This document shows positions 30,503-55,862 of a stretch of DNA of 58,642 nucleotides, one piece after another. The stretch's first letter is position 1. Every line of letters begins with the position of its first letter. The stretch comes from an uncultured virus (IMG/VR IMGVR_UViG_3300008003_000324) (Duplodnaviria > Heunggongvirae > Uroviricota > Caudoviricetes): IMG/VR virus record IMGVR_UViG_3300008003_000324. One strand, 5' to 3'. A program made the position numbers and the translations under genes. Under the pieces are notes generated by a model that had not been told where the DNA came from, searched no databases, and saw nothing but the letters and a program-made list of their open reading frames with translations.

Positions 30503-31108
30503 TGGGTCACCCGGCTATAAAGAGGATAAGGGAGATTGTGGGGGGGGGGAGTCGAATGTGGAAGCGATGTTGCAGATTTCCTCCGCTCTTACATGAATAT
30601 AAATCCTTCACCTCTACAGATTAGGATATTGCATCATTTGTCGAAAAACAATATGAGTGGGGTTGCAGGGCCGAGGGCATCAGGCATTACTACCGCAGTA
30701 CTAGGACATTTGCTATATAATTTTGTCGATAAAAACCATCAAACAATTGTGCTAATGGCCAACAACATGCAATCGGCGAAACACAATTTAACAATTTTCA
30801 GAGATATGATGTTGTCGATTAACCATCAATATATTGATATCAATACGAACATCAAATGCACCAAATGGGGACTAAAACTAATTAACGGTTCTAGGGTAAT
30901 GGCTACAAACACGGTGCGTTCTTTCGAGGGAGCACACATTACACATTTGTTTGTAGACGACTTCTACAAGTATAATTATAGAGACGGTTCAGAACTTTTA
31001 GATTGTATATACCCTGTGATGGCACGTAACAATGGTCAAATTATTTTAGGGTCAACGGGTGGTACGGTTCCTGTGAGCAGTAATATATTCCCTACATTAC
31101 AAGTGTAA
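30502..31108 (+). pseudogene. degenerate terminase ATPase-domain paralog, frameshifted at a G10 tract
   Basis: ECGSDVADFLRSY, PRASGITT (Walker A-like), NGSRV, LFVDDF (Walker B), IILGST. The coupled ATG at 30502 is out of frame by one base across G10. Confidence 0.65.
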
Positions 31109-31751: not shown

Positions 31752-31797
31752 AATTTATATAGAACTAAATAATTGAGATGACTTGTCCCATTTGTTT

Positions 31798-34700
31798 ATG
31801 AGTAGAAGAAGTAACCCAAGACTTAAAAAAGCTTTCTCCGAGCAGTCCTATACAGTAGAACAAGCACAAGAGTTAATGAAATGTGCCAGAGACCCGGTTT
31901 ATTTCATTACAAACTATGTGTTTATCAAACACCCGGTTAGGGGACAGATCAAGTTCTCCATGTATGATTATCAACAAAATATGGTCAGACAATTTGAAAA
32001 GAATAGATACAATATTGTTCTAGCATCTAGACAGGTTGGTAAGACTGAAACATCTGCGGCATATCTACTCTGGTACGCCCTATTCAACGAAGAGAAGATG
32101 GTGTTGATTCTTTCCAATAAATCCGATGGCGCTAAAGAGATTATATCCAAGATTCAAAACGCTTATGAAGAATTGCCACATTGGCTGAAGCCGGGGATCG
32201 ATGATGATTCTTGGAATAAGCATGAATGTAGGTTTGACAACAAGTCTAGAATTCTTGCTGGTGCCACTTCTGCCGATTCTGCCCGTGGTCTTGCTATCAG
32301 TCTTTTGTATCTTGACGAGTTCGCATTTGTAAAGACACACTTACAGGAAGAGTTCTGGACTTCGGTTTTACCAACTCTATCTTGTTTGTCGGGTGATACT
32401 TTAATCTTTACACAAGACGGTTTGAAAGAAATAGAAGAATTCCACAAGGAAAAAAATGTGGGAGACTATTTTGAGATAAAAGGCTTGGCCACATGGGGGA
32501 TCGGTGGAAGAGAACGTGTTTCCCATGGTTATGTTAGTCCGGAATCTGAAACCCAAATCATTACAAATCTTTGGGGGATGGAGGTGGAAGCCACGCTCAA
32601 ACACCCGTTTTGGGTTGCTGGGCCGGATGGTCCATTCATGAAACCCAATCAAGAATTATCAGAAAAAGACTATATTCGTGTAGATTCTGGAATGAACATG
32701 TGGGGTAATAACACATTGAAACCAGAGCATGCATATATGCTAGGTGGTTATATTGCAGAGGGTTGGACGCAGAAGAAACACACAACAGGTAAAGCATACA
32801 GTATTCTGGTCTCGAATACAGATGACGAATTCAGAGATGTATATTTAAACTCTAATTTGATAAAGGAATTTACACAACATAGTCAAGAATCTCATAAGTT
32901 GGTTTGTAGTTCTCTAGAGTTGGTAGAAACTTTTGAGAGTTGGGGCGTTGACGTATACGCGAAATGTTACGAGAAAACCACCCCAAAGACTATTTTTACT
33001 AGTTCTAAAGATACCGTAACAAACTATTTAGCAGGACTTTTCGATGGAGACGGCTCCATTACAGATCGTTCTATAAACTTAACAAGCACCAGCAAGAAGT
33101 TGCTAAAAGAAACACAATTATTACTATTGAATATGGGAATCATCAGTAGAGTATATATTAATGATGGTACTAAAAAGAGGCCAAGAAGAATCGCCAAAAA
33201 CAACAGTGTTACTCAAACCTGTAGAGACTCGTATTCTCTCAATATACCGTTGTCGCAGTATGAGTTGTTTAAACAAAACATACCCATACGAATACAAAGA
33301 AAAATCGATAAACTAAATCACATCATTTCAAATAGAAAGCAAGATGACTACAAACAGTTCACAATCCCTTGTGATGTTATTACACCAACAATAAGAAAGA
33401 TTTTGAAAGAATGCAATCTTACGATAGGAAGAGCGAGAACCGAGTATAACATTCGCTTGGATAAAATACTGGACGGGAAATCTGGTAGAGTCTGTACCAA
33501 CCAAAAATTTAATCTATTTTCCGATATGGTGAAAAAAGAAAATAGTGTTGTTTGGGAAAAACATAAATCATTTTGGGATGGATATTTGGTGAAAACCTCA
33601 TGGGTGAAAATAAAAAAAATGACTCCGTCTTATCAGAAAAAGACCTATGATTTTACTGTTCCCGGATCACATTCATTTTTACAGTCCGGGTTCATGGGGT
33701 CAAATACAGGTGGTTCATGTATCATTTCAAGCACCCCAAATGGCAACAGCAATCGATTTGCACAAATGTGGAGAGAGGCAAACAATGATGGGGAATTTGT
33801 TCCTACACATGTTCCGTGGAACGCTCCTCCGGGTCGAGATGAAGATTTCAAAAAGCAACAGATTAGCATCCTTGGAAAAAGAAAATGGCTTCAAGAGTAT
33901 GAGTGTTGTCATGGAGATACATTAATTGAGCTTTCTAATTCAGATGGTACTAGGTTTGTCAAGGTGCCAATTTGCATGGCTTACGAGGCATTGGAACGGG
34001 ACGTTGATATATTTGACATGAATCCCGGAATTCTTACAGGAAAGTATGTAGTTTCCCCACTAGACGGGAAAAAATATTGTAGATGTAACGGCCAATTTTT
34101 TAAACATATAAAAAGCTACGGTTATTGTTCGTATCAAGATTTTTTTGAATCATTATTTCCGGCCCACATAAAGTATTGCGGTTGTGGTAATAGGGCCAGT
34201 TTCAAGAATGCATCAATGTCGTACTATAGTGGATGTGGCGAAATATTCTGTAGGAATAGAAATATATCATCTAGGAAGAAAAAGTTCACGAAAAAAGACT
34301 GGCAGGTTGTCGCAGACCGGTATAGAAAAACAATGTCTAAAAAAGAACCAGATGAAATAAGAGAGATTATAGAGCGAAGAACGAAAAATGGACACGCGAA
34401 TTGCAGCTACAAAAAATCGGTAACCAAGAGGCGAAAAACCTGTACTGAACGCCATGGTAGTTCCGTTTATAATAATCCTAGCAAAATATCTTATACCAAG
34501 AAAAATTGGACAAAAGAAAAAAAGGAAGAATTTTTGTCAAGACTCAAGGAGTCTCTCGGCGGGAGATGGTTGAATGACTATCATGACGAAAAAATGTATA
34601 AAAGACGGAGAAAAACTTTAGAAGAAAGTGGGAGTGTTGTCCCAATAGAAGCATTATCCGAGTGGGAGTTGTATCGAAATGAAGTTCGAAATCTCACAAA

Positions 34701-34926
34701 AAGGAATTACAGAAAATTCAAAAAGATTATTAATCCAAATAATTTGCCTAGAGGAAACGGAAGAGGCAAATATCATCTCGATCATATAATTCCCGTTTTA
34801 TACGGTTTTTTGAATGATGTCCCTGTAGAAGAAATGGCCGGTGTGGATAACTTACAAATGTTGTTGGATAAAGATAACAGGAAGAAATCGTATAAGTACG
34901 AGGGGGTATACGATGGTCAAGAATGA
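31798..34926 (+). CDS. gp17: terminase large subunit N-part (ATPase) with cis intein, split-intein N-half and HNH endonuclease
   Basis: SRQVGKT, LYLDEFAFV, SSTPNG, WLQEYE, then CCHGDT and a C-terminal HNH. Confidence 0.93.
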   Translation: MSRRSNPRLKKAFSEQSYTVEQAQELMKCARDPVYFITNYVFIKHPVRGQIKFSMYDYQQNMVRQFEKNRYNIVLASRQVGKTETSAAYLLWYALFNEEKMVLILSNKSDGAKEIISKIQNAYEELPHWLKPGIDDDSWNKHECRFDNKSRILAGATSADSARGLAISLLYLDEFAFVKTHLQEEFWTSVLPTLSCLSGDTLIFTQDGLKEIEEFHKEKNVGDYFEIKGLATWGIGGRERVSHGYVSPESETQIITNLWGMEVEATLKHPFWVAGPDGPFMKPNQELSEKDYIRVDSGMNMWGNNTLKPEHAYMLGGYIAEGWTQKKHTTGKAYSILVSNTDDEFRDVYLNSNLIKEFTQHSQESHKLVCSSLELVETFESWGVDVYAKCYEKTTPKTIFTSSKDTVTNYLAGLFDGDGSITDRSINLTSTSKKLLKETQLLLLNMGIISRVYINDGTKKRPRRIAKNNSVTQTCRDSYSLNIPLSQYELFKQNIPIRIQRKIDKLNHIISNRKQDDYKQFTIPCDVITPTIRKILKECNLTIGRARTEYNIRLDKILDGKSGRVCTNQKFNLFSDMVKKENSVVWEKHKSFWDGYLVKTSWVKIKKMTPSYQKKTYDFTVPGSHSFLQSGFMGSNTGGSCIISSTPNGNSNRFAQMWREANNDGEFVPTHVPWNAPPGRDEDFKKQQISILGKRKWLQEYECCHGDTLIELSNSDGTRFVKVPICMAYEALERDVDIFDMNPGILTGKYVVSPLDGKKYCRCNGQFFKHIKSYGYCSYQDFFESLFPAHIKYCGCGNRASFKNASMSYYSGCGEIFCRNRNISSRKKKFTKKDWQVVADRYRKTMSKKEPDEIREIIERRTKNGHANCSYKKSVTKRRKTCTERHGSSVYNNPSKISYTKKNWTKEKKEEFLSRLKESLGGRWLNDYHDEKMYKRRRKTLEESGSVVPIEALSEWELYRNEVRNLTKRNYRKFKKIINPNNLPRGNGRGKYHLDHIIPVLYGFLNDVPVEEMAGVDNLQMLLDKDNRKKSYKYEGVYDGQE
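32383..33705 (+). mobile_element. cis intein (441 aa) with LAGLIDADG endonuclease in terL
   Basis: PTLS|CLSGDT, block B ATLKHP, LGGYIAEG and LAGLFDGDG, TYDFTV...GSN|TGG. Confidence 0.92.
33904..34017 (+). mobile_element. split intein N-fragment (about 30-38 aa)
   Basis: QEYE|CCHGDTLIELSNSDGTRFVKVPICMAYEAL; block A only. Confidence 0.88.
34018..34926 (+). mobile_element. HNH homing endonuclease in frame with the intein N-fragment
   Basis: YHLDHIIPV...DNLQML..DNRKKS; Cys-rich and Lys-rich DNA-binding-type segments upstream. Confidence 0.85.
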
Positions 34927-42406: not shown

Positions 42407-42982
42407 ATGTCAGTATATTATGAAAAGCTTGCAAACCGAGATTTGTGGGTTGATGGACAATCCAGCTTGTCGGTTGATGCCATTTGTGACAAAATTTTTT
42501 GTGGCGAAAATCTAAGAGATATTCTTTCTAATAATATAATCAGCGGTAGAGACAAGAGAGAAGTAGATAAGTTTCTCAAACTCGTACCTGAGTTCAAGGG
42601 TTCGAAAGTTTGTTACAAGGAAAAAACCCATGTGGCTGGGTTCGATACTTCTTTTGACATTGACGAGAAATACAAAAACCTAGGCATTGAAAAAATTTTG
42701 GTCAAAAAGATCAAGACCGAGATACACAAAAAGCAACTAAACGACGAAGAGGTACTTCTAAGAATAGAGAGGATACAACACGAGTTGGAATTATATAAGA
42801 ATCATGGTTTGACTGATGTACTCTCGGCCTGTCTTTATATCGTCGATACCTTTAGAAACAACAACATCGTTTGGGGTCCGGGTCGTGGGAGTGCTTGCTG
42901 TTCTTATGTTCTTTACTTGATTGGAATTCACAATATAGATAGTGTAGCCTTCGATTTGAAAATGGACGAATTCCTAAGATGA
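42407..42982 (+). CDS. DnaE/Pol III-alpha-like fragment 1 (GRGS motif)
   Basis: RIQHELEL...VWGPGRGSACCSYVLYLIGIHNID...LKMDEFLR (DnaE: GPGRGS..SLVAY.LGIT.IDP...L.FERFL). Confidence 0.85.
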   Translation: MSVYYEKLANRDLWVDGQSSLSVDAICDKIFCGENLRDILSNNIISGRDKREVDKFLKLVPEFKGSKVCYKEKTHVAGFDTSFDIDEKYKNLGIEKILVKKIKTEIHKKQLNDEEVLLRIERIQHELELYKNHGLTDVLSACLYIVDTFRNNNIVWGPGRGSACCSYVLYLIGIHNIDSVAFDLKMDEFLR

Positions 42983-42983
42983 T

Positions 42984-42991
42984 TATAAATA
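42984..42991 (+). promoter_or_regulatory. late promoter TATAAATA
   Basis: Exact consensus. Confidence 0.7.
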
Positions 42992-43022
42992 ACAACACGT
43001 ATGATATCAAAGGAGTCACATA

Positions 43023-43301
43023 ATGGCTAGAAAAGTGAAGAGCTTAAAGGGAGAAGAGATAGATTTTGATCTATTGAAAACAAAACAGGAATTGGGTCAA
43101 AAGGAAACGGTTCTCGAAGTTCGCGATAGAGAAGATTTTGTTCACACCAAGAGACGTACTAGGGGCCGCGCGGCGCTTATTCAACGTTTGAATAAAAATA
43201 AGAAAACACGAGAGTCAAGGTCTAACGAGGAAACGTCCAAAGTAGGTCGTGAGTCCGAGACTACTACAACTAAGAAAAGAAAGATCGTCAAGAAAAACTA
43301 A
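43023..43301 (+). CDS. basic hypothetical protein
   Basis: AAGGAG RBS; SLKGEEIDFDLL motif. Confidence 0.7.
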   Translation: MARKVKSLKGEEIDFDLLKTKQELGQKETVLEVRDREDFVHTKRRTRGRAALIQRLNKNKKTRESRSNEETSKVGRESETTTTKKRKIVKKN

Positions 43302-43309
43302 GGAAAATT

Positions 43310-43645
43310 ATGAAAGTATCACTTTTTGAAGATAAAATAGCATTTAGGTTTGAGGAAGAGATTACAAATCACGGATTTATAAATAAAACAGAGTCGGGTT
43401 TGTATATACAAGAAGTACATTCCGAACAAATCAAACGTCCTCGTTGGGGGGTGGTGTTACAAACCGGTCCTGATTGTACAGAAGTTTCCGAAGGTGATGT
43501 CATATTGATTGAAAACTCTATGTGGACTAATGGAATTGATTTTGAAGAAACCGAAAGTAGTCAGTTTTGGGTAACACGAGAGCGCAATGTCATTGCAGTT
43601 AGAGACCGGAACCCCATAAATACCAAACAGAACATAACCGTTTAA
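43310..43645 (+). CDS. groES: GroES/gp31-like co-chaperonin
   Basis: KTESGLYI, WGVVLQTGPD, VSEGDVIL, ERNVIAV. Confidence 0.85.
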   Translation: MKVSLFEDKIAFRFEEEITNHGFINKTESGLYIQEVHSEQIKRPRWGVVLQTGPDCTEVSEGDVILIENSMWTNGIDFEETESSQFWVTRERNVIAVRDRNPINTKQNITV

Positions 43646-43651
43646 CAACTT

Positions 43652-44587
43652 ATGCCATTCTTAATAATGATAACGCTAGGCACTCTTCTTATCGCCAGTG
43701 CCGCAATATTTTTTAGTGTTTTGGGGCTTGTCCAGACGTTTTCCGAAACTGCACTCTATTGGGGTACAGCCATAGAAATAGCCAAATTGGTGCTTGCTTC
43801 TTTTGTTTATCGCTATTGGGATAAAATGGAAACTTTGTCAAAAATGTTGGGAGTTTTCTTTGTTGGATTGTTGATGGTGATAACTTCTCTTGGAATATCG
43901 GGGCATATTCTTTCTTCTATGCAGCAGGGTGATTTGGAATTAACAGCCCAGCAAATACAAACTGAAACCGCTAACAGCCGTATTTCTAGAATACAAGAGA
44001 GAATAGATTTCGTAGATCAAAGGATCGAGCAGGGGCGGTCTAGATTAGAAGCAATTGACGAAGAAATAGCTCTAGTTCCCAATAATTTTGTTACTGCTAG
44101 ACGACAACTTATTCAAGAACGTCAACCCGAAAAAGATCAAATTCAAAAAACCATAACCGGGCTTTTCGACGAACGAGATGCGTTGTTCTTACAGATTGAA
44201 CAGGCTGAGTCGGAGAGAGGAGAATTGTATTTAGAAACTAAACAGATAGAAGTTAAAGTCGGTCCCATAGTAAAAGTGGTAGAAACTTTTGGGGCAGATG
44301 CCGCCAAAGCAATATACATTTTCATTCTTATTATTGTTTTAAGTTTTGACCCGGTTGCAGTATATTTGACGGTTGCAGCGAATCGTGTTGCAATTGATAT
44401 TCGTATGAAAAAAGAACAGAAAGACACCATGGACGAATCACCCAGAACAGGGTCTAAAATGATTTCCGGTAAGCACATCAAAGATGACGGCAAATTGGAT
44501 AACATAGTCGAAACTATGAGCTACATCAAGGATCGACTAAAAAAAGAAGATGAAAAAAAACAGCAGTTCAGAGACTCTTTGTCTTGA
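43652..44587 (+). CDS. membrane protein with long coiled coil
   Basis: Three N-terminal TM segments, a coiled coil, then one C-terminal TM. Confidence 0.75.
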   Translation: MPFLIMITLGTLLIASAAIFFSVLGLVQTFSETALYWGTAIEIAKLVLASFVYRYWDKMETLSKMLGVFFVGLLMVITSLGISGHILSSMQQGDLELTAQQIQTETANSRISRIQERIDFVDQRIEQGRSRLEAIDEEIALVPNNFVTARRQLIQERQPEKDQIQKTITGLFDERDALFLQIEQAESERGELYLETKQIEVKVGPIVKVVETFGADAAKAIYIFILIIVLSFDPVAVYLTVAANRVAIDIRMKKEQKDTMDESPRTGSKMISGKHIKDDGKLDNIVETMSYIKDRLKKEDEKKQQFRDSLS

Positions 44588-44612
44588 TGTATAGACTCTA
44601 AGCTTATATAAT
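44584..44612 (+). promoter_or_regulatory. sigma70-like promoter
   Basis: TTGATG-N17-TATAAT before the clamp loader gene. Confidence 0.65.
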
Positions 44613-44640
44613 TGTCTCCACTTGTATTAGGAGACAATAT

Positions 44641-45585
44641 ATGCCGAAACAACTCTGGTGGCAAAAACACCGACCGTCCACCGTAGACAATTTCATATTT
44701 CAGAGTGACGAACAAGAACGCTTTATTCGTAAATGCGTGGAAGAAAAAAGCATCCCGCACCTTCTGTTGCATGGACCCAAGGGCTCCGGAAAAACCACTT
44801 TGGCGCAGATCATAATCAACGCTCTCGTGGAACCAGAAAACATTTCATCTGACGTTTTAAAAATCAACGGTTCTAAAGACGGTAAGATAGATAATATCAG
44901 AAAACAATTGATAAATCATGTCACGAGAGTCCCTATGGGAGACGTTCAGCTTGTTTTTGTGGATGAAGCCGACGGTCTGTCATCTTCGGCACAAGATTCT
45001 CTCAGGGGCATTCTAGAGGAATATGACGCAGATGCTAGGGTGATATTCACTTGCAACTATGTACAACGGTTGACCCCAGAGCTTCGTTCTAGGTTTACTC
45101 AGATGAAGTTTACCCCGCCCGATAAAGACGAAATAGTTCCCTATTGTGTCGATATACTAGATGTCGAGGGAATAGATCCTAGTAAAAAGGAAAATTTAAA
45201 AGCTTTCAAGGAAATTATCGATGGCTATACCGGAGATCTTCGACAACTCGTCATAACACTAGAAAACTCTGCATATGGTGATTCTCTTAATGTTTCATCC
45301 ATAGAAGACGGGAATATGGACATTAAGTTATCAATTTTCGATAGCGTTGCGGAAGATAATTGGATACAAGCGAGAAGAATAGCAGCAGAAAATTTCAGAG
45401 ACGAAGAATTGATTGAGGTATATAGATTCTTGTATGAATACTTAGAAGATATGGAGAAGTTTAAAGATCCAAAAGATTTTAAGAAAGGAATAATTATTAT
45501 CTCTGACTACATGTACAGGCATGCTGTGCATCCAGATCAGGAAATTAATTTTGCTAGTTGTTTAGTCAAACTATCTGAGGTGTGA
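44641..45585 (+). CDS. gp44: clamp loader AAA+ subunit (gp44/RFC-like)
   Basis: WWQKHRP, GPKGSGKTT, VDEAD, TCNY, LRSRF. Confidence 0.93.
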   Translation: MPKQLWWQKHRPSTVDNFIFQSDEQERFIRKCVEEKSIPHLLLHGPKGSGKTTLAQIIINALVEPENISSDVLKINGSKDGKIDNIRKQLINHVTRVPMGDVQLVFVDEADGLSSSAQDSLRGILEEYDADARVIFTCNYVQRLTPELRSRFTQMKFTPPDKDEIVPYCVDILDVEGIDPSKKENLKAFKEIIDGYTGDLRQLVITLENSAYGDSLNVSSIEDGNMDIKLSIFDSVAEDNWIQARRIAAENFRDEELIEVYRFLYEYLEDMEKFKDPKDFKKGIIIISDYMYRHAVHPDQEINFASCLVKLSEV

Positions 45586-45586
45586 C

Positions 45587-45898
45587 ATGCGGTTGACAGA
45601 AGAGCAGGTAAAGAAAGAACTCAATGATGTTTCCCGTTTTCCCGAGAATGCGGATAAACTGTCATGGAGAAGAAAGATGGAGAAAATGGAGGGTTTTTTG
45701 AAAGAACTTGAGCCCATAGAAGAAGAAATATTCAACCTATATGAAAAGAAAATTCCTATCACGGACAAGATAGCCAAACTTAGAAAAATTATGGTTGATG
45801 AATGTATTCATCCAAAGGATCATCTCGTACATAAAGGCACTCATATCGAATGCAAGTTTTGCAATAAGATCATCAAACCGGTGAGGAAAAATGATTGA
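45587..45898 (+). CDS. hypothetical protein with C-terminal Zn-binding motif
   Basis: CIHP...CKFC. Confidence 0.7.
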   Translation: MRLTEEQVKKELNDVSRFPENADKLSWRRKMEKMEGFLKELEPIEEEIFNLYEKKIPITDKIAKLRKIMVDECIHPKDHLVHKGTHIECKFCNKIIKPVRKND

Positions 45899-46319
45899 TA
45901 TTTTTGATCAACTGGACAAGATAGACAACTTTGATCTAGCTGCCATCAAAAACGAAGAGTTTCTCAAAGACTTCAATCCCTTCATGGTCAACAAATGGAT
46001 GGCTGCTACACCCAACCCCAGACGAGTATTGTTGGTTAATGAAATACTTAATTCTATGATATTTCAATTGCACCGAGAGAAGAAGCTATTGTATTATTTG
46101 TCGTGTGCATCTTCGACTGGACCGGAACGCTATTCTTGGGTGAAGAGACCAAAAAATGTCCCTGACCCCATCACAGAGATCGTCTCACGGTATTATGATA
46201 TCTCTTATAGAGAAGCTGAAATGTCTTTGAAACTCTTGGAAAGGGAAGATATATTGGAAATGGCCGAAGAATTAGGGTTGGACAATAAGGATTTGAAAAA
46301 GATAAAGAAACATTTATGA
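45891..46319 (+). CDS. gp62: clamp loader small subunit (gp62-like)
   Basis: FNPFMVNKWM...YYDISYREA; close to gp44. Confidence 0.7.
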   Translation: MIDIFDQLDKIDNFDLAAIKNEEFLKDFNPFMVNKWMAATPNPRRVLLVNEILNSMIFQLHREKKLLYYLSCASSTGPERYSWVKRPKNVPDPITEIVSRYYDISYREAEMSLKLLEREDILEMAEELGLDNKDLKKIKKHL

Positions 46320-47008
46320 TACCAAAATTTCATCAATGTGAATTTTGTTCTAAGACTTTTGCAAACGAGATCAACCTTTCTAAGCACCGTTGTGAGTTTA
46401 TGGAAAGGTACGAGTATATCACCGAGAAGGGGTCAGGAGTTGTACTGTTTAAACTCTATAAGTTTTGGTTGAAGGATAAGAAAAGATCTGTAAAGTACGT
46501 TGACCATCAAACCTTTATACATTCCACACATTACAAGCCTTTTGTTCGTTTCATGGAGTTCGCTAAGAAAAATAGTCTACCGAATAAAGAACTTTATATA
46601 TCTTATTGCAATTCGAGAGACATTAGTCCCAAATCATGGACAGATGCGAAGCTTTATGAAGAATTTATTGCATGGTATGACGAATTATATCCATATAATA
46701 AGCAACTTGAAATAAGCATTAAGACTATATTCCAGATATGCGAATGGTTGGAACTCGATGACCCTGCACAAATATTTGATGAATTGGACAGTAAGACTAT
46801 TTTAGAACTACTGAGGCGTAGGAAAATATCTCCGTGGCTGTTTTTTAACAGCGCGGTTTTTATGGATTATTTAAAAACAAGGGCGTCCGCTGTCGAACGT
46901 GACCACATCCAATTAGTAACAAATCCCGTAAGATGGAAAACTATATTCAAAGACAATCCAAAAAAGAGAAGAAATGCAATTAATCTGATAAAAGAAATTG
47001 GACTATAA
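46316..47008 (+). CDS. zinc-finger-containing hypothetical protein
   Basis: CEFCSKTF...HRC. Confidence 0.7.
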   Translation: MIPKFHQCEFCSKTFANEINLSKHRCEFMERYEYITEKGSGVVLFKLYKFWLKDKKRSVKYVDHQTFIHSTHYKPFVRFMEFAKKNSLPNKELYISYCNSRDISPKSWTDAKLYEEFIAWYDELYPYNKQLEISIKTIFQICEWLELDDPAQIFDELDSKTILELLRRRKISPWLFFNSAVFMDYLKTRASAVERDHIQLVTNPVRWKTIFKDNPKKRRNAINLIKEIGL

Positions 47009-47042
47009 ATAAATAGGAATGACTTGAAAACTTTATATCTAG

Positions 47043-48407
47043 ATGTCAATAAACTGTAGAGATGCCTCTTATACCATCCAGAAGGTAGATACAAATACCG
47101 AAGACATAACCGTAAACAGAGGTCAGATAGATCAGACCTCTCTAGACATCACGCTTCTCGGGAAAAGAAGAAGGGAATATGGAGAAATCTTCAATGAAAA
47201 TCTACTGAGAATTCTGGAAAACTTTAGTTCTCCGGAAGATGGTTCCAATCCCGGAAATCCAGATCCTAATTTCACAAATGGCGGGGTTTTATCTAATCCC
47301 ACTTCCGGACAGCTATGGCATAATTCGACAGATGACAGAATTTACCATTTCACGGGATTTGAGTGGAAGATTTTGGGGGAGCTTGGGGACGTTGCCGGTA
47401 ACTTTGGAACAATTATGAGCGGAGAACAATTACCCCGACCGGTGAGTGTGTTTACCGGATATGTGTTTCCGTATGAAGAATGTAGCTGGGTAGTAGCACC
47501 AGCTTATTATGATGATGAAATAGAATACATGGCATGCTATACAGATGATCAGGCTAACGTCACATTTGAATACCGCCGAGTGGGTGAATCTTCCTTAGTT
47601 TCTGGTAGTGTTACATATCAGATAATTGGCATCCGGGATAACAACAGTTTGGGGGTTCAGGTGACACCCACACCGCCACCTTCGGTGTCTCCCACACCGA
47701 GTGCTTCGCTGACACCGACTCCGACTCCGACACAATCAGTTTCGGCATCTGCGGTCGCAGCCACACCGACACCTACACCTACAGCATCTGTAACGGGAAC
47801 GCCGGGGGCGTCACCACCGGCCACACCGACACCTACACCTACAGCATCTGTAACGGGAACGCCGGGGGCGTCACCACCGGCCACACCGACGCCAACACCG
47901 ACACCATCACCAACACCTTCGGTAACCTCAAGTCAAACGCCGACACCAACACCGACACCATCTTCTTCAACGGAAACTTTCGGGAACGTAGAAGCTGCAA
48001 CATACACACACTTTGTTGTTGGGGGCGTCACGGCGGACGAACTGTCTATACGCTTCGTCCTGCAGCCCAACGGAGATATTGATCGTATTTCAACTATTGA
48101 TGGTGTGGTGGGCGCTGCGGTTACAGTTGGAACTTGGGTGGTAGATCCAAGTGATCCGGGGTTTGTCCCCGGAGATTACACATACACAACTGTTGTCACA
48201 GGCCCAACAGGTATCGGTGTGTTTGAAGAACCAACACCGGCTACGGGGGGTACCATAGATGCTTCAAAAGCGTGGGAGTTGTCTAGGTCTACCTCTGGTT
48301 CTGGTACTACTACCGGAACCGTAGCAGTAACTTTGACACCGGGAGGAGGTTCTTCTTCCTTTACAGGTGGAACTATAACTTTTGAATACACATTGGAAAA
48401 GACGTAA
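47043..48407 (+). CDS. baseplate/fibre protein paralog 1 with Pro-Thr linker
   Basis: [16 protein letters not shown]...GQLWHN; TATAAATA at 47004. Confidence 0.7.
47761..47890 (+). repeat. perfect 60-bp tandem duplication in the PT linker
   Basis: 47761-47820 is identical to 47821-47880, plus 10 bp of a third copy. Confidence 0.97.
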
Positions 48408-48411
48408 AAAT

Positions 48412-49719
48412 ATGACTTACAATATAAATTTCACAGACCCGTCGAAAGACCCGATACAAGTCCCGGAAACTGGTATAAACGAGAGTTTGAGTGTCAAGTT
48501 TCCGGGAAGAATACGACTTGAATGGGGTAAGGATGTAAATGAAAATTTACTTAGAATGTTGGAAAATTTTGCGTGTCCTTCGTTGGATTCAAACGAGAGT
48601 GTTCCCGATCTGTCTATCCATGAAGGAATTTTATCCAATCCTGTTGATGGACAACTTTGGTATAATACGACAAACGAAAGAATTTATAAGTATTCGGTGG
48701 AGTCTTCAAAATGGCTCCCCCTAGCTAATAGGAATCAGATGTATGCTGCCAACTGGGGACAAATACAACACGGTGAACAGTTGCCTAGACCAGTAGCAAC
48801 AAACGGTTATGTTTTTCCATATGAAGAGTGTATATGGTCGGTGTCTCCACACAATTATTTGGACGGATTTACTAGCGTAAGATGTTTTTCTTTTCCCAAC
48901 GATTCTACTGTTGTAATGCAGTATCAATCTCGGGATCAACAGATTGTTGTCGACGGGGTAGCTAATTATTTAATTATAGGAATAACCGGGAACGACAACT
49001 TGGGTGAGTTTGTTCCACCTCCACCTCTGGGTCAACAAACTCCTCCAGAGCCTACTCCGGGAGTATCTAGCCCGGCAGAGTTTATTTTATATGACTATTC
49101 TTCAAATCAGGCAACGTTACCATTAACAGCGACCGCCCAGATAAGGACTGAAGAGCTTTCGGTGCTGGGGGGTGGGGGCATAACATATCAGGTTTCGGAT
49201 AGCAGTGTCCAGAATTTTGAAGCGTCTGTATCGGATGCTACTTATGTTGCAACGGTTCGAGCTAGTATAGATAAAAATTCTTTTAGAATAATACACAAAG
49301 CCGGGAAAGGTGTTTCCGGTTCCGAGCTTGATCCGCCGATTGAACAAAGGACACATACATTTTTGACATGGACGGATCTCCCACTGGACAGTTACTCCAC
49401 CCTGCATATCAGGGGCATATCGTTTGCTTCCGGGGCCGGGACAAGTATTTCTGACACTCACGCTATCTCTGTTGCAATAGGTAAAGATTTAGTGACTGTC
49501 GATCAAACTAGCGGCAGTGCTGGATTGATTCTCCCCGAGAAAGCTACGGTCGGAATATACGAAAACAAAAAGTTACAACCTTTCGTGTTTACGGATTACG
49601 TGTTTACAATACCCCCGGCGCTAGACAGGGTTAACAACAATATTACGATAACATATAGCTACACACACCTACAAGATTTCGAAATGTTGCACGACGGGGA
49701 TATATACCTGAGTAATTGA
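48412..49719 (+). CDS. baseplate/fibre protein paralog 2
   Basis: WGKDVNENLLRMLENF...GQLWYN...[16 protein letters not shown]. Confidence 0.7.
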   Translation: MTYNINFTDPSKDPIQVPETGINESLSVKFPGRIRLEWGKDVNENLLRMLENFACPSLDSNESVPDLSIHEGILSNPVDGQLWYNTTNERIYKYSVESSKWLPLANRNQMYAANWGQIQHGEQLPRPVATNGYVFPYEECIWSVSPHNYLDGFTSVRCFSFPNDSTVVMQYQSRDQQIVVDGVANYLIIGITGNDNLGEFVPPPPLGQQTPPEPTPGVSSPAEFILYDYSSNQATLPLTATAQIRTEELSVLGGGGITYQVSDSSVQNFEASVSDATYVATVRASIDKNSFRIIHKAGKGVSGSELDPPIEQRTHTFLTWTDLPLDSYSTLHIRGISFASGAGTSISDTHAISVAIGKDLVTVDQTSGSAGLILPEKATVGIYENKKLQPFVFTDYVFTIPPALDRVNNNITITYSYTHLQDFEMLHDGDIYLSN

Positions 49720-49748
49720 ATAAATAAAACATAGAGGATTTTTAGCAC

Positions 49749-49922
49749 ATGTATATATTAGTCAACCGAGAAAATGTTATTGTGGCAAGCTCCACAAAAA
49801 AGCCTTGTGTGGCAGATTGTTCAGAAAAAGGATTAATGATCTACAAGGTTGCGAGTGAAGAATACAGCCCCATGTTGATTGGACAGAAGCTTGATGATTT
49901 CGAAGCGGTGGAGAGAACCTAA
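49749..49922 (+). CDS. small hypothetical protein (57 aa, not in the ORF track)
   Basis: MYILVNRENVIVASS...; GAGGA RBS and AATAAATA at 49719. Confidence 0.6.
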   Translation: MYILVNRENVIVASSTKKPCVADCSEKGLMIYKVASEEYSPMLIGQKLDDFEAVERT

Positions 49923-49924
49923 TC

Positions 49925-51541
49925 ATGAGTGTAACTTACGACCTAAAAAAGACTGACAGGACGAAATCCGAAATATCTGTCGATGAAAATACCAGAGTTA
50001 GCAACATCGTTGATATTGTGCTGTTTGGTTATAAAGAATTAGAATACGGTCGTGAGTTGAATGAAAACATTCTTCACATTTTAGAAAATTTCGCATGCCC
50101 GGAAGACCCCGACAATGTGGGAAACCCCGATGTTTCTAGAGCCAACTACGGGAAATTGGACGGGAGACAGATTGAAGGGCAGTTTTGGTACAACACTACC
50201 CGGTCAGTATTAAATTTTTGGGATGGGACACAATGGGTTCCGCTTTCAAATTTCGGTGAGGACATAGCAGCGAATTGGGGCCAGATATTACACGGTGAGC
50301 AGCTTCCTAGACCGCAGTCCGTGTCAGGATACCTTTTTCCTTATGAAGAGTGTAGTTGGATAGTTTCTCCTTTCAATCAGGTAGACACTATGGGGAATAT
50401 GGTTTGTAGAACTGACGAAGTAGCTACAGTTCAGATGACGTACTTGTACGATGGCGATGTTGTTGATACAAACGCTATTGCGAACTATTTAATTGTTGGG
50501 ATTAGAGGAAACAACAACATTGGAACACAATTACCGGTTCCAACACCTTTGCCATCTGTTGGTGTAACTCCTTCTCCGACTCCGACATCAACACCGGGAG
50601 CATCTCCGACACCTACACCATCTGTTACACCTTCGCAGTTCTCATTCCCAACACCTACGCCCACTCCGTCGCCTGAGTATTCTCCACTAGGATTAACTTT
50701 CAACGTCGCTGAGTTTTTTGGTAGTTGTACTGCGGTCTCCAGTTGTACCGCATCTGACGTAGTATCGTCTTTCAATTACACAGTATCTGGGGGAAGTGGA
50801 AACTTTAGTTATCTGTGGGAGTACGTATCTGGATCAACGTTTAGCATTGCTGGTGGAGTAACTTCACCCACACCAACTCTGTCTAGATTTGCCGCCGTGT
50901 CTTCTTCTGCGTACACTGGTACTGGTAGGTTGACGGTTGTGGATAACATTACAGGTGAGTCTGTAAACAGAACCTTTACTTTCAGAACTGTTCATAGTTC
51001 TAGTGTGGCCCCATCACCTACGCCGGTGACACCAACGCCGTCGCCCGTACCACCAACTCCATCACCGGTAGCACCATCCCCCACACCGCTACCGTCACCG
51101 TCACCAATACCGCCATCACCTTCTCCGGTAGCACCGTTGGTAGCAACTGACGAGGGTGGTTGTGATTACAACGCGGGTAACACCAGTTTGCTTTGTATTC
51201 CGGTAGGAACTGTTGACATTGTTGACGGTGCGTCATATAGCCCGATCATAGCCGTTGGAGTTACAGGGGGTCAGGGCCCGTATACGTATGAAGTTATTGC
51301 GTCTTCGGTGGGTTCAGCTTCTCCGCAGGTGGTGTCGATTACTGCTGATCATACTTCGAATGGTGGCACTTTATCGTTCTCCGTTCAAGGAAATGCTGGC
51401 GGACCGGATGCTCCGTTGACCGTCACGGTATCTGGAGTGTACACTGTAAGGGTTACTGACGCTCTCGGAAACACTAGCACGGTTAACGTGACTTGTCAGT
51501 CTACACACGGCTACTTCTGTAACAATGTGCCGGTTGAGTAA
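49925..51541 (+). CDS. baseplate/fibre protein paralog 3 with two PT/PS linkers
   Basis: YGRELNENILHILENF...GQFWYN; Ig-like segments (VSGGSGNFSYLW, VTGGQGPYTY, YTVRVTDALG). Confidence 0.7.
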   Translation: MSVTYDLKKTDRTKSEISVDENTRVSNIVDIVLFGYKELEYGRELNENILHILENFACPEDPDNVGNPDVSRANYGKLDGRQIEGQFWYNTTRSVLNFWDGTQWVPLSNFGEDIAANWGQILHGEQLPRPQSVSGYLFPYEECSWIVSPFNQVDTMGNMVCRTDEVATVQMTYLYDGDVVDTNAIANYLIVGIRGNNNIGTQLPVPTPLPSVGVTPSPTPTSTPGASPTPTPSVTPSQFSFPTPTPTPSPEYSPLGLTFNVAEFFGSCTAVSSCTASDVVSSFNYTVSGGSGNFSYLWEYVSGSTFSIAGGVTSPTPTLSRFAAVSSSAYTGTGRLTVVDNITGESVNRTFTFRTVHSSSVAPSPTPVTPTPSPVPPTPSPVAPSPTPLPSPSPIPPSPSPVAPLVATDEGGCDYNAGNTSLLCIPVGTVDIVDGASYSPIIAVGVTGGQGPYTYEVIASSVGSASPQVVSITADHTSNGGTLSFSVQGNAGGPDAPLTVTVSGVYTVRVTDALGNTSTVNVTCQSTHGYFCNNVPVE

Positions 51542-51546
51542 ACGAT

Positions 51547-52224
51547 ATGGATACTATGGAAATTAAAAATCTAAAAACATCAAAAACTGAAAAACAGATT
51601 CAGGATGAGATTAATGCTGTTAAGGCCAAAAGGAAAACTCAACTATCGCAAACAGATTGGACACAGTTAGATGATGTTAACCTACAAAATTCAGAAGAAT
51701 TTAGGAATTGGAGAAAGGCCCTAAGAGAGTTAAACATTACTTCACTGAAAGATAAATCCTTGCTAGATGATTTGATTATTAACAAGCCAGTCCCACGAGT
51801 TTCAAAAGAAATTCCTACGCAAGAAGATAAAGATATCTCAGTGAAAGAATGTATCGTGGAAGACAGAGTCGATGCTGAAAAATGTTTGACAAGTTTGTTG
51901 ATAGAGGAAAAAAACTCTGAGTTAGTAGAGGCAGATGCTTCTAGTTATCCATTGTTCAGGCTTCTCCAAGAAGAATTGATCGAACATGATTTAGGACAAA
52001 CACCACCAAAATTTCTTTCGAGATACATGGGGGCAGTTGGGTTAGACCCACAGGCAACGGAAGATCTTAAAGAGGTTGAAGAAATTTGCAAAAACTTCTT
52101 TGCAACGGTTAATGAGATTTTTTTCACGTTTGAATGTAAGATACGAAGCGTTTATACTATGTCCGAAGAGGAATTGGATCAGGAGTTGAATAAACGTGGA
52201 TATCGATATAGACCTATCAACTAA
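51547..52224 (+). CDS. tail fibre assembly chaperone-like protein
   Basis: RKTQLSQTDWTQLDDV...WRKALREL motif, directly after the fibre genes. Confidence 0.65.
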   Translation: MDTMEIKNLKTSKTEKQIQDEINAVKAKRKTQLSQTDWTQLDDVNLQNSEEFRNWRKALRELNITSLKDKSLLDDLIINKPVPRVSKEIPTQEDKDISVKECIVEDRVDAEKCLTSLLIEEKNSELVEADASSYPLFRLLQEELIEHDLGQTPPKFLSRYMGAVGLDPQATEDLKEVEEICKNFFATVNEIFFTFECKIRSVYTMSEEELDQELNKRGYRYRPIN

Positions 52225-52771
52225 CGTAGATACAAAAAAGCTTTTTCCCAAAGCGATATCTGCTTCATCCAACGAAAACGGAGAGCTTGTAAAGCACCTC
52301 GTCGGTCACTATTTCCAACACATTCCTGTTGATGAAGAAACCGGACTTTCTGCAATAACTTACAAAAGAGCACTAGAGTATGGGTTTTTTAAAATCGATC
52401 TACTCCATTTGCGCTTATTGGATAATTTCAAATCAAAAGAACATTTGGAAAGTTATATGTTTCGAGAGCCAGATTGGGGTTTGTTACAAAATGAAACTGT
52501 CGTAAAACAGCTTTTTCACCTGAGTAAATCGTATGAGCTATTGTGTCGCGCTAAACCTTCGTCTGTTTTGGAAGTAGCAGACTGTTTGGCGTTGATTCGT
52601 CCGGGAAAGGCTTTATTGATAAATAGTTATATCAAAGACAAAAAGGCAATTAGACAAGAGTTGTATAAAAAAGAAAAACCCAGTGATCTGAGAAAATCTC
52701 ACGCAATTCCATATGCATATCTGGTAATAGCGCAACTCAATCTAATTGAAGACAACCTATATGAAGCTTAA
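52196..52771 (+). CDS. DnaE/Pol III-alpha-like fragment 2 (catalytic aspartates)
   Basis: MDIDID, KHLVG, GFFKIDLLHL, LALIRPG, RKSHAIPYA; AGGAG RBS at about 52180. Confidence 0.85.
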   Translation: MDIDIDLSTNVDTKKLFPKAISASSNENGELVKHLVGHYFQHIPVDEETGLSAITYKRALEYGFFKIDLLHLRLLDNFKSKEHLESYMFREPDWGLLQNETVVKQLFHLSKSYELLCRAKPSSVLEVADCLALIRPGKALLINSYIKDKKAIRQELYKKEKPSDLRKSHAIPYAYLVIAQLNLIEDNLYEA

Positions 52772-53093
52772 TAATATCTTCGAAAACCAAATTTCACTAT
52801 CAAATCGTCAAAAATACATATTGGCGACTATAAAATCGGCAGCTACGCCCCTGTTGGCATACGAGTCAATAGTGGACAGTGAGCCAGATGTGGTGGCCTC
52901 TAAATTGCTTGCTCGGTATGGGTTCATTGAGGTGTCGTCTAAGGAAGGAAAAGCTGTATTAACAACAAAGGGCGAAGAAGCGGTTGTTGAGTATGGCATA
53001 GCAGATGAAACCGGTCAACTTACCGACACTGGGACCGAGTTGGTTAATAACTACGGTAACGGAGAAGAAGAATCAGGAGAGATAGTCAGTTAA
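52761..53093 (+). CDS. hypothetical protein starting MKLNNIFE
   Basis: ORF, possibly winged-helix-like (LTTKGEE, LTDTGTE). Confidence 0.65.
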   Translation: MKLNNIFENQISLSNRQKYILATIKSAATPLLAYESIVDSEPDVVASKLLARYGFIEVSSKEGKAVLTTKGEEAVVEYGIADETGQLTDTGTELVNNYGNGEEESGEIVS

Positions 53094-53549
53094 TGTTTTG
53101 AAATCTGCTACGGAATCTTGAAAGTTTTCGGTATTTTTATGAATCTTGCGTTTTCTTTTTCTAATTTTCCTAGGGTTGCTAACATCAAAAAAATACACAG
53201 GCCCAATGATTCTGGAAACGTAATCTATTGAGTAGCTTTTTACGATTTTGGACGACTCATGGTCGAACCCCTCTTTACAAAATTCCACTGAAACCGGGTA
53301 CTGGTCTCTGTTAGCAGCATACCATTGCCTAGCAATTTCAATTACTCTTTCTTCAGAAACTCCAAGAGGTCCACACAAATCCAAGCAAAAAGCAGTGATA
53401 TGCCTTTTCCCTACATTATCTATGATTGACAAATTTTTCTCATCATTGTATTTTATCAATGTTACGAATTCGTACCCCTTGTATGATAGGGGGTAGTCTT
53501 CTATAACTAAGGGAAATTCTGAATTGCTTTTTAGTCTCTTGATTTCCAT
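53073..53549 (-). CDS. hypothetical protein
   Basis: 158 aa; minus-strand TATAAATA at 53587-53594. Confidence 0.7.
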   Translation of the reverse strand: MEIKRLKSNSEFPLVIEDYPLSYKGYEFVTLIKYNDEKNLSIIDNVGKRHITAFCLDLCGPLGVSEERVIEIARQWYAANRDQYPVSVEFCKEGFDHESSKIVKSYSIDYVSRIIGPVYFFDVSNPRKIRKRKRKIHKNTENFQDSVADFKTLTDYLS

Positions 53550-54785: not shown

Positions 54786-55309
54786 TTGTAACTCTTTCTG
54801 GAACTCCGGGGAACGGAAAAAATCAAATCATTTCCGGTCTCAAAGAATACGGTTACAACGTAGTCTCAAAGAAAGGTGCTGATGGAACCATGCGGGGTCA
54901 ATTTACGTTGATGAAAAACTACCGTACCCAAATGGAGATGTGTTTAAAATATGAATCTGACGAAGAAATTTGTATTTTTGAGTCATCTTTTGTCGATATG
55001 ATAGTTTATACCGCCCTGTGGATAGGAATCTATGACGACAACATGGAAGAACTGAAAAGTATTCGAGAGAAATGCATTGATTATCAAAATCAATATGTAG
55101 ATCTGAATTTTAATCTATATTCGGATACCAGCGACACCACATATTATAATGAAAACTGGAATGCCATAGCAAATTTATACTATGGTAAAAAGGTTCAAAT
55201 TCCTTATTTGCTTAATGGCTCTAAGAGTGTAGAATATAATATCAAAGAAATAATTGAGGAAATCGAAGAGCATGCATCAAAGCAACAAATATTTGTCGAT
55301 ACACGTTGA
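54782..55309 (+). CDS. P-loop nucleotide kinase-like protein (divergent)
   Basis: IVTLSGTPGNGKN, IFESSFVDMIVY. Confidence 0.6.
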   Translation: MIVTLSGTPGNGKNQIISGLKEYGYNVVSKKGADGTMRGQFTLMKNYRTQMEMCLKYESDEEICIFESSFVDMIVYTALWIGIYDDNMEELKSIREKCIDYQNQYVDLNFNLYSDTSDTTYYNENWNAIANLYYGKKVQIPYLLNGSKSVEYNIKEIIEEIEEHASKQQIFVDTR

Positions 55310-55862
55310 AACTACTGGAATGAATTACGATCTTGAGAAGCTCCCTTGCGAGGGACATGACATTGTAGTTGTGTCATTGGCCGTATGTGATTCTAAATTT
55401 AAATTACTTGATCGGATGACAGTCCATTTTAAACAGAAAGATTCTGATTATGGACAGCAGTACCATAAGATAACACCAGATATTTTGGAAGAGTGTGGTG
55501 TGACAGAAGAAGAGGGTCTTGTTGAAGTTTCAAATTTCATTCTGAATCATTTTGACCCAGATGAATATATTGTTTGTTTGGGGCAAAATGTTCATTCGTT
55601 CACCCTCCCATTTTTCAAGCAATTTCTTTACCGGAATGAAGTATATTTTAAGTTTTCGGTTAATTCCATTGAAGTTTTTTCGCTTACTACCCCAACTATT
55701 GGTCCCTACACGATAGAAGAATTAATAGCGGTATTTGGTGATGTGGACGAGTTAAATGTAGAGGACGAAGAAACTATTAAATACTTGTCGTTAATGAAGG
55801 CAGTCACATTTGTTTCTGTCACAAGGAAAATAAACAAATTATGGAACAGATTGACAGAATAA
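55272..55862 (+). CDS. DnaQ/DEDD exonuclease-fold protein, active site degenerate
   Basis: SIHVETTG, YHKITPD, LGQNVHSFTLPF. Confidence 0.65.
   Translation: MHQSNKYLSIHVETTGMNYDLEKLPCEGHDIVVVSLAVCDSKFKLLDRMTVHFKQKDSDYGQQYHKITPDILEECGVTEEEGLVEVSNFILNHFDPDEYIVCLGQNVHSFTLPFFKQFLYRNEVYFKFSVNSIEVFSLTTPTIGPYTIEELIAVFGDVDELNVEDEETIKYLSLMKAVTFVSVTRKINKLWNRLTE

Follow-up and report, generated by a model that had tools for sequence, protein, structure and literature searches.

The DNA analysed here is a stretch of 58,642 nucleotides (nt) from an uncultured virus of the class Caudoviricetes (IMG/VR record IMGVR_UViG_3300008003_000324), hereafter called the window. Two genes of the window, separated by 9,213 bases, encode short proteins of 191 amino acids (aa) each, which together resemble the catalytic core of the alpha subunit of bacterial DNA polymerase III (Pol III alpha), a C-family polymerase. 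The initial annotation, made from the sequence alone, had read them as a miniature C-family polymerase divided between two genes. Here we refer to the upstream gene and its product as half 1 (alpha-N) and to the downstream one as half 2 (alpha-C), and the residues are compared with those of Escherichia coli DnaE. The two genes and their principal elements are as follows.

42407..42982, + strand: half 1 (alpha-N), ATG start, 191 aa, C-terminus ...GPGRGSACCSYVLYLIGIHNIDSVAFDLKMDEFLR (...EFLR)
42407..42640, + strand: N-terminal part of half 1, residues 1-78, without a counterpart in Pol III alpha and occupying the place of the PHP domain
42641..42979, + strand: N-terminal part of the palm in half 1, residues 79-191, equivalent to E. 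coli DnaE 272-393
42884..42892, + strand: GS nucleotide-binding motif R160-G161-S162 of half 1, equivalent to E. coli R362-G363-S364
52181..52185, + strand: AGGAG ribosome-binding site, 10 nt 5' of the GTG of half 2, read from the sequence
52187..52189, + strand: in-frame TGA, two codons 5' of the start of half 2
52196..52771, + strand: half 2 (alpha-C), GTG start, 191 aa, beginning MDIDIDL
52199..52213, + strand: D2, D4 and D6 of half 2, equivalent to E. coli D401, D403 and D405, with D2 and D4 as the metal-binding pair
52391..52399, + strand: K66-I67-D68 of half 2, equivalent to K553-F554-D555 (K66 and D68 paired by hhalign), with D68 as the third catalytic Asp
52598..52606, + strand: R135-P136-G137 of half 2, equivalent to R639-P640-G641 (paired by hhalign), R135 and P136 being invariant
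52694..52702, + strand: K167-S168-H169 of half 2, equivalent to K758-S759-H760, H169 corresponding to the steric-gate histidine, K167 and H169 being invariant

Half 1 begins with a phage-specific N-terminal part, followed by the N-terminal half of a Pol-beta-type palm. It matches the Pfam family PF07733 (DNA_pol3_alpha) over positions 3-94 of 260 (E 2.3e-13, above the cut-off) as well as PHROG 11127, 'DNA polymerase' (E 3.6e-42), and its homologues, 108-195 aa in length, form 93 clusters. In the AlphaFold2 model (predicted local distance difference test, pLDDT, 90.1) residues 79-191 superpose on residues 272-393 of the DnaE structure 4jom with a VIA-align Z of 12.8 and a root-mean-square deviation (rmsd) of 3.6 A over 111 residues, whereas the first unrelated chain reaches only Z 4.8, and the same picture was obtained over 48,161 chains independent of Foldseek. 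The relationship can also be detected by sequence: a profile of 48 homologues matches E. coli DnaE at 285-392 in a search of the PDB sequences (E 3e-7) and DnaE 260-393 by hhalign with a probability of 96.6%. Residues G157, G159, R160, G161, S162, S166, Y167, H175 and S179 are invariant in all 48 aligned sequences, the GPGRGS motif aligns with E. coli DnaE 359-364, and in all 24 displayed rows of this alignment the protein ends with EF[LF][RKNH] or within a few residues of it. The structure searches, including that of the 48,161 chains without Foldseek, gave no structural match covering residues 1-78, and for these residues the Atlas feature search found nothing above 0.85.

Half 2 carries the catalytic palm strands together with a reduced thumb and a portion of the fingers. 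Its gene cannot reach further upstream because of the in-frame TGA at 52187..52189. The protein belongs to PHROG 11778 (E 9.1e-58), and in Pfam it matches nothing but the finger domain of Pol III, weakly and below the cut-off (E 7e-4). Residues 1-191 of its AlphaFold2 model (pLDDT 94.7) superpose on E. coli DnaE 401-783/786 with Z 10.5 and rmsd 3.6-3.7 A over 171-184 residues, and also on Taq 462-843 and PolC 972-1301 (Z 10.4 for PolC). In the structure search all 13 of the 13 C-family entries scored Z 7.3-10.5, followed by an unrelated chain at Z 2.6. CCA-adding enzymes, CD-NTase, MNT and the like were not among the structural matches above noise, which does not exclude a family that is not listed there. 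Homologues of half 2 are numerous, with 315 clusters found by a word-index search and 390 representative clusters at E <= 1e-3 by an exhaustive profile search. Among 55 aligned homologues D2, D4, D6, K66, D68, R135, P136, K138, K159, D164, R166, K167, H169, Y173 and A174 are invariant, and the motifs DIDID, KID, IRPG and KSHA..YA, all of which lie in half 2, are invariant or almost so; the C-terminal tail is not conserved.

The roles of the E. coli Pol III residues were taken from the relevant passages of bioRxiv 10.64898/2026.06.29.735100 and Vaisman et al. 2021 (PMC8485763). According to the former, R362-G363-S364 touch the incoming deoxyribonucleoside triphosphate (dNTP), D401 and D403 are metal ligands, K553 is the primer-phosphate lysine that bonds the primer end, its K553A mutant being inactive, and R639-P640-G641 contact the templating nucleotide; passages of both sources describe H760 as the steric gate against ribonucleoside triphosphates (rNTPs) (bioRxiv 10.64898/2026.06.29.735100; PMC8485763). 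Taken together, the two phage proteins hold the GS motif, the catalytic Asp triad and the finger elements RPG and KSH, by which a C-family polymerase is recognized. The pairing of KSH with E. coli 758-760 is suggested by the end of the structural alignment at DnaE 783-786 and the position of the motif.

In E. coli DnaE the segment FERFL occupies residues 388-392 and the first catalytic Asp is D401. The chain break of the phage proteins falls in the short helix-strand loop between the two, in the middle of the Pol-beta-type palm, since the alignment of half 1 stops at DnaE 392-393 and that of half 2 starts at 401. Contigs from four further metagenome runs span the whole stretch and contain no credible joined form. 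A 22-letter 'joint' from 43887 to 50452, seen in one contig of one run, was rejected as spurious, one side of it being shorter than 30 letters. The Pfam search assigned neither half to a Hint or intein family, although it did detect inteins in two other genes of the window, those of a helicase and the terminase. The initial annotation had already located both open reading frames (ORFs) and the break within the FERFL-DIDID stretch, had assigned all three catalytic Asp, IRPG and KSHA..YA to the second gene and had seen no intein, PHP or OB domain on the halves; the DnaE alignments, the 55 homologues and the empty Pfam search agree with it on each of these points.

The two proteins occur together in related phages. 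Both are encoded by single-copy genes in all five complete genomes of named relatives (XacN1, Atu_ph07, PA5oct, GAP32 and RsoM2USA), and in the related T4-core jumbo phages (such as XacN1, Rak2-like phages, PA5oct and Atu_ph07) the pair is kept, single-copy and apart. Half 1 is present in 24 of the 28 viral contigs of at least 100 kb that carry half 2, and in six of the seven of those that are at least 90% complete; in the lone contig of this completeness that does not have half 1, half 2 lies less than 1 kb from the contig end, so that a half 1 gene upstream would fall off. The distance between the halves ranges among contigs from about 4 kb to about 189 kb (9.2 kb in the window), and they are never adjacent. 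In 23 of the 24 contigs half 1 lies upstream on the strand that also encodes half 2; in the remaining one the two are on opposite strands.

Prediction of the two chains as a complex gave an ipSAE of 0.90 (0.90, 0.91 and 0.90 in individual runs) versus 0.00 for the best control, a mark that is reached by 116 of 157 solved complexes and by 2 of 215 mismatched pairs. The model has 163-165 contacts, at least 96% of them common to the runs, with a partner pLDDT of 92. In it, residues 155-157 of half 1, on the strand preceding the GS loop, pair with residues 5-7 of half 2 on the DxD strand, and residues 3-19 in the N-terminal part of half 1 touch half 2 as well.

Natural single-chain forms also exist. 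Among the best 150 of the 390 representatives of half 2, two metagenomic proteins, P0302 and P0348, contain both halves. Residues 8-181 of P0302 (375 aa) correspond to the half 1 profile (probability 99.65%) and residues 191-372 to the half 2 profile (E 1.2e-32), with a 10-residue linker at the site of the break, and P0348 (336 aa) is a second fusion that does not have the N-terminal part. The fused forms are rare: P0302 was found on one contig of 2.4 kb and P0348 on contigs of 8.0 and 1.2 kb. The scan of viral contigs for a wider context of P0302 gave no relative, and the word-index search detected no longer relatives of half 2, the exhaustive profile search giving the two. In a midpoint-rooted FastTree phylogeny of 105 half 2 sequences, half of whose forks are unresolved and from which no order of events is drawn, each of the two fused forms is placed in a separate clade of split forms (supports 89 and 86, within a clade of support 96), which hints at two secondary fusions. 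Because of the co-occurrence of the halves, the complex model (0.90 versus 0.00) and these natural fusions, the two-chain, intein-free miniature C-family core is very probably a non-covalent heterodimer.

The boundaries of the genes are recurrent. They were surveyed in 81 DNA sources, comprising 80 viral contig loci and the window; as several of the loci nearly duplicate one another, the counts cannot be treated as independent. In none of the 81 are the halves joined. The codon preceding D-[IV]-D is ATG in 50 and GTG in six of them, the other 25 having a short N-terminal extension, and an in-frame stop lies 0-28 codons upstream of half 2 in every source. Half 1 ends exactly at the end of its profile in 23 of 33 sources and at most 11 residues past it in the remaining 10. 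Four close pairs of half 2 genes differ by 15 synonymous and one non-synonymous change in sum. The ratio of non-synonymous to synonymous substitution rates (dN/dS) is saturated in 1,774 of 2,145 pairs of half 2 and in 125 of 253 pairs of half 1; the medians of the unsaturated pairs, 0.24 for half 2 and 0.40 for half 1, are inflated by saturation. Across four metagenome runs the population variants are C27C and K185Q in half 1 and D68D, V103V, Q105R and A119V in half 2. Position 42959 is A in the window (K185 of half 1) and C (Q185) in the contigs of four other runs and in one further viral locus, L008, and this residue is variable in the family.

The arrangement is a further example of a family described by sequence in 2021. 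The passages of Iyer et al. 2021 (Viruses 13:63; PMC7824862) that deal with it report, for the group 2.2 jumbo phages, a 'minimal split DNA polymerase III', a phage-specific form of Pol III alpha made of an N-terminal NTP-binding and a C-terminal metal- and template-binding protein, encoded by distant genes, with a family B polymerase alongside and without other Pol III domains, for which a role in the synthesis of one strand or in repair was guessed. As in that system, the window encodes two standalone proteins by distant genes in a T4-core jumbo phage, and PHROG 11127 and PHROG 11778 apply; the present copy differs in coming from an uncultured aquifer or spring phage. As the initial annotation had suspected, DnaE fragments are already annotated in other jumbo phages, half 1 being called 'DNA polymerase III alpha subunit' in the GAP32, XacN1 and Atu_ph07 records, and a half 1 homologue is mentioned in a passage of Attai et al. 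2018 (PMC6102473). The main text of the PA5oct omics paper mentions neither 'DNA polymerase' nor gp264. The heterodimer model, the residue map, the clamp-loader synteny and the single-chain forms are added here to what those passages of Iyer et al. contain, along with evidence that the relatives encode no other Pol III pieces.

Compared with Pol III alpha itself (DnaE structures 2hnh, 4jom and 5fku and the PolC structure 3f2b), the phage pair shares the palm with the GS motif, the Asp triad, the lysine equivalent to K553, the thumb hairpin, RPG and the KSH helix. It differs in having 382 aa in two chains instead of 1,160 aa in one, in missing PHP, most of the thumb and fingers, the HhH beta-binding part and OB, and in the new 78-residue N-terminal part of half 1. 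In cyanobacteria DnaE is split by an intein, encoded by two distant genes and joined by protein trans-splicing. The phage polymerase likewise comes from two distant genes, but its break lies in the loop before D401 and carries no Hint or intein, and its halves must stay non-covalent, unlike those of cyanobacterial DnaE. The error-prone C-family polymerases DnaE2 and ImuC are also C-family cores outside the main replicase without an active proofreading partner; ImuC is one full-length chain, whereas the phage has two short ones, and no ImuA or ImuB partner was noticed in the phage, though no search was aimed at them. Replisomes with two polymerases are known as well, DnaE acting with PolC in Bacillus and Pol alpha with Pol delta in eukaryotes, where the second enzyme extends primers first. 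The phage resembles them in placing a C-family enzyme beside a different main replicase, although in the phage this is a family B enzyme and no evidence of hand-over or primer extension is seen here.

The source of the window is a T4-core jumbo phage, as judged by PHROG matches to a gp23-type major head protein, portal, prohead protease and terminase. Pfam and PHROG matches further identify recombination genes (an SbcCD-like nuclease and UvsX) and replication genes (a gp32-like single-stranded DNA-binding protein (SSB), a UvsW-type helicase, a DnaB-like helicase and a gp44-/gp62-like clamp loader), so that the gp23-type capsid, UvsW, gp32-type SSB and RFC-like clamp loader that define a T4-core host are all present. 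The nearest named phages are XacN1 and Xoo-sp13, with 37-38% identity in half 1 and 55-57% in half 2, and the closest longer record is a near-identical fragment of 118 kb with an estimated completeness of 34%. DNA nearly identical to positions 42800-52771 (82-98% of sampled words) occurs in 24 runs of 21 studies, from aquifer, hot-spring and cold-spring metagenomes, and 11 of the runs are flagged as possible sources of the window. No RNA run is listed among the 24.

Both genes are embedded in a replication and recombination module, amid genes for UvsX, UvsW, the gp32-like SSB, the clamp loader, a deoxynucleoside monophosphate (dNMP) kinase, a primase and DnaB. The features lying between and next to the halves are listed below.

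44641..46319, + strand: clamp-loader genes between the halves, gp44-like at 44641-45585 (PHROG 168), a small ORF, and gp62-like at 45891-46319 (PHROG 225)
46316-47008, + strand: 230-aa protein of PHROG 11058 just after the clamp loader, with a Cys/His-rich, zinc-finger-like N-terminus (from the translation)
47043..52224, + strand: variable cassette of three paralogues (PHROG 15511) with Pro/Thr-rich linkers and a tail-fibre-assembly-like gene
52746..53093, + strand: small ORF of about 115 aa, overlapping the stop of half 2, with an acidic C-terminal tail
53073..53549, - strand: convergent ORF of about 150 aa (PHROG 11637), present in 70 of the 81 loci about 0.9 kb 3' of the start of half 2

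The clamp-loader genes are bracketed by the halves: a gp62-like gene is found 5' of half 2 in 55 and a gp44-like gene in 42 of the 81 sources, and the PHROG 11058 protein is encoded upstream of half 2 in 60 loci. Much of the distance between the halves is supplied by the variable cassette, whose paralogue cluster (83 members) occurs in 36 of the 81 loci. The three PHROG 15511 paralogues (47043-51541, + strand) have a common N-terminal region of about 250 residues, beyond which long Pro/Thr/Ser-rich linkers lead into divergent sequence; at about 47790-47860, in the paralogue repeat, contigs from other runs are broken, and the copy number of the cassette varies among relatives. In 51 of the 81 loci the small ORF at 52746-53093 keeps a constant offset (interquartile range 566-611 nt). 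It has no PHROG or Pfam family, its Atlas matches do not exceed 0.89 and belong to no family, and it is a candidate accessory protein; either this ORF or the PHROG 11637 gene could be a putative partner of the polymerase. Located 3' of half 2 are a dNMP/thymidylate-kinase-like gene in 27, an epsilon-like gene in 21, a primase gene in 16 and a DnaB gene in 13 of the 81 loci, and the distance from half 2 to the primase and DnaB genes is 1.4-5 kb in some relatives. A primase is also annotated in PA5oct and Atu_ph07.

The epsilon-like gene of the window (55254-55862, + strand) is homologous to the XacN1 gene that bears the annotation 'DNA polymerase III epsilon subunit' (30% identity, E 5e-22) and has no Pfam match at E <= 0.01. 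The first exonuclease motif of its product reads HVETTG in place of D-x-E, and 12 of the 21 members of the epsilon-like cluster do not have the D-x-E form (HCHTTG, HCHTSG, HVETTG, SIDSNG, SVDTNG and SIDTNG). Of the two intein-bearing genes, the helicase gene at 14-2575 (+ strand; Helicase_C_2, PHROG 2488) holds its intein, with Hint and LAGLIDADG homing-endonuclease domains, in the N-terminal 370 residues, and this ORF may extend beyond the start of the window. The large terminase subunit is met twice, as an N-terminal-like fragment of 190 aa (30536-31108, + strand) and as an ORF of 1,047 aa (31783-34926, + strand) in which an intein containing a LAGLIDADG domain comes after the ATPase part.

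A family B polymerase (PolB; PF00136) accompanies the pair in relatives, being present in all five named complete genomes and in nine of ten viral contigs, including all seven that are at least 90% complete. The PHP domain (PF02811) was found in none of the five named genomes and none of the ten viral contigs, whereas the control search was positive in each of 14 cellular genomes. PolB is present and PHP absent in every one of the 12 relatives examined that are complete or nearly so. The domain HHH_6 (PF14579) is likewise missing from the five named complete genomes, and the Pfam search gave no PHP, HhH or OB match on either half; half 2 ends at about DnaE 786 and so falls short of the C-terminal HhH/beta-binding and OB domains. 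PF07733 matches were confined to half 1 and finger matches to half 2, save two weak, sub-threshold matches in GAP32 (PF07733 E 0.008, finger E 0.016). In several relatives, namely Atu_ph07 (NC_042013.1, 212336-213688), PA5oct (NC_071039.1, 217618-221395) and viral record G007 (90907-94077), the PolB gene itself consists of two or three separate open frames, which are up to about 2.5 kb apart. Polymerase genes that are split or interrupted seem to be frequent in this group of phages.

On these grounds we consider it likely that the two genes encode the two chains of one minimal C-family polymerase core of the Pol III alpha type, which would be DNA-templated and use dNTPs. In such an enzyme half 1 would give the helices and the strand bearing the GRGS nucleotide-binding loop. 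Half 2 would give the strand with the two metal-binding Asp, the strand with the Lys and the third Asp, a short thumb hairpin and a reduced finger, the last retaining the template-contacting RPG and the histidine of KSH. With the central palm sheet built from both chains, neither half should be active alone. The pair, having no proofreading, PHP or clamp-binding parts of its own, would act beside the family B replicase within the replication and recombination module, and its possible roles include the synthesis of short patches during repair or recombination, the filling of gaps, or the extension of primers before hand-over.

Most of what the initial annotation had proposed for the pair has stood up to this analysis. 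The non-covalent heterodimer finds support in the co-occurrence, the complex model and the natural fusions, and comparison with the DnaE palm returned C-family structures only (Z 12.8 for half 1, Z 10.5 for half 2); the halves occur together in the five named genomes and in 24 of the 28 long contigs, with PolB beside them in the five genomes and in the seven contigs of at least 90% completeness. The searches for PHP, HHH_6, PF07733 and the finger domain revealed no further DnaE pieces that would rebuild a replicase in the complete relatives, and the changes in the four close half 2 pairs show no sign of decay. The suggested role in priming or end-tailing is not supported and is less likely than templated synthesis from dNTPs: RPG and the KSH histidine are kept, and the kept residue set fits a template-directed, dNTP-using DNA polymerase better than a primase or a tailing enzyme. 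The non-replicative role that had been proposed likewise finds no support, both genes lying within the replication and recombination block.

Several observations weigh against this interpretation or restrict it. Outside its own family the sequence evidence for half 2 is weak: its profile has no match at E <= 1 among the PDB sequences, and hhalign pairs it with E. coli DnaE at a probability of just 2.5%, an alignment that was used for the pairing of motifs alone, hence the pairing of residues rests mainly on the predicted structure. The finger is strongly reduced as well. RPG and KSH are about 30 residues apart in half 2 versus 117 in E. coli, the index finger (R709, R710, K714, K715) is mostly gone, and Y754 is without a clear equivalent, the near-invariant Y157 at the end of the preceding helix being a candidate; in half 1 a conserved Glu aligns with E. 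coli R390, which contacts the dNTP. As a consequence of the reduced finger, nucleotide selection may differ from that of E. coli. The high score of the heterodimer may in part be a memory of solved single-chain Pol III alpha structures, since these hold the same contacts inside one chain, and it speaks for likeness, not for binding. At intermediate divergence dN/dS is inestimable, the synonymous sites being saturated, and only the four close pairs are informative. The population variants Q105R and A119V of half 2 are non-synonymous, both at non-conserved positions. PolB was found neither in the window nor in the near-identical 118-kb fragment, which is 34% complete, and no clamp-binding element turned up, though no motif search was made. 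Finally, no experimental work on the family was found in full-text searches of a collection that lacks most subscription journals, the only description met being computational.

A more far-reaching form of the same idea can be put forward only tentatively. The pair might be a self-sufficient templated polymerase of about 380 residues, the smallest of the C family, serving as a second polymerase that extends primase products or fills recombination gaps before PolB takes over, perhaps with the help of the small ORF at 52746-53093.

Among the explanations that depart from a templated polymerase, the one that survives best is an active nucleotidyltransferase that works without a template, in tailing, in de novo initiation or in making a signalling nucleotide. 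The Pol-beta nucleotidyltransferase fold includes many untemplated enzymes. The fold of the pair, the loss of most of the index finger that closes on the nascent base pair, the replacement of R390 by Glu and the lack of the clamp-binding, HhH and OB parts that hold DNA would all suit such an activity. Every structural match above noise is nevertheless a C-family DNA polymerase, the template-bonding RPG and the steric-gate His that blocks rNTPs are invariant, and a separate primase gene lies near half 2 in 16 of the 81 loci and is annotated in PA5oct and Atu_ph07, all of which makes untemplated synthesis improbable.

It is considerably harder to believe that the pair is catalytically silent and serves as a scaffold or decoy for DNA, the clamp loader or replication proteins of the host. 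In favour of this are the drastic reduction of the enzyme, the lack of a known activity and the degenerate exonuclease motif of the epsilon-like neighbour, which hints that some Pol III-like parts in these phages are without chemistry, but all metal- and triphosphate-binding residues are invariant over deep divergence and a pure scaffold needs none of them. Still less credible is a reading in which a conventional Pol III alpha, complete with PHP, full fingers, HhH and OB, is reconstituted from several dispersed fragments of which the halves are two: gene fragmentation is indeed at home in these phages, with inteins in the helicase and the terminase and PolB in two to three pieces in Atu_ph07, PA5oct and one viral contig, yet PHP is absent from the five genomes and ten contigs and HHH_6 from the five genomes, and apart from the two weak GAP32 matches PF07733 and the finger domain occur only in the halves. 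That the ORFs are what is left of a DnaE gene taken up from a host and now decaying, an idea invited by short fragments of a long gene of which one has long been annotated plainly as 'DNA polymerase III alpha subunit', can practically be dismissed in view of the recurring boundaries (exact end of half 1 in 23 of 33 sources, M-D-[IV]-D start of half 2 in 56 of 81), the hundreds of clusters of about 190 aa with invariant catalytic residues and the 15 synonymous changes against one non-synonymous.

A minimal polymerase core formed by two chains would be of interest in several respects. For enzyme engineering, a polymerase of about 380 residues with natural single-chain variants would be a useful starting point, and if the pair is self-sufficient, the single-chain forms of 375 and 336 aa would be ready-made minimal polymerases. 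If active, the pair would show how little of Pol III alpha suffices for templated synthesis, namely the palm, a thumb hairpin and a finger stub, and that two chains can jointly form the palm sheet. It bears on the origin of the bacterial replicase, an idea raised in the passages of Iyer et al., and on the question of why large T4-type phages retain a second, unrelated polymerase.

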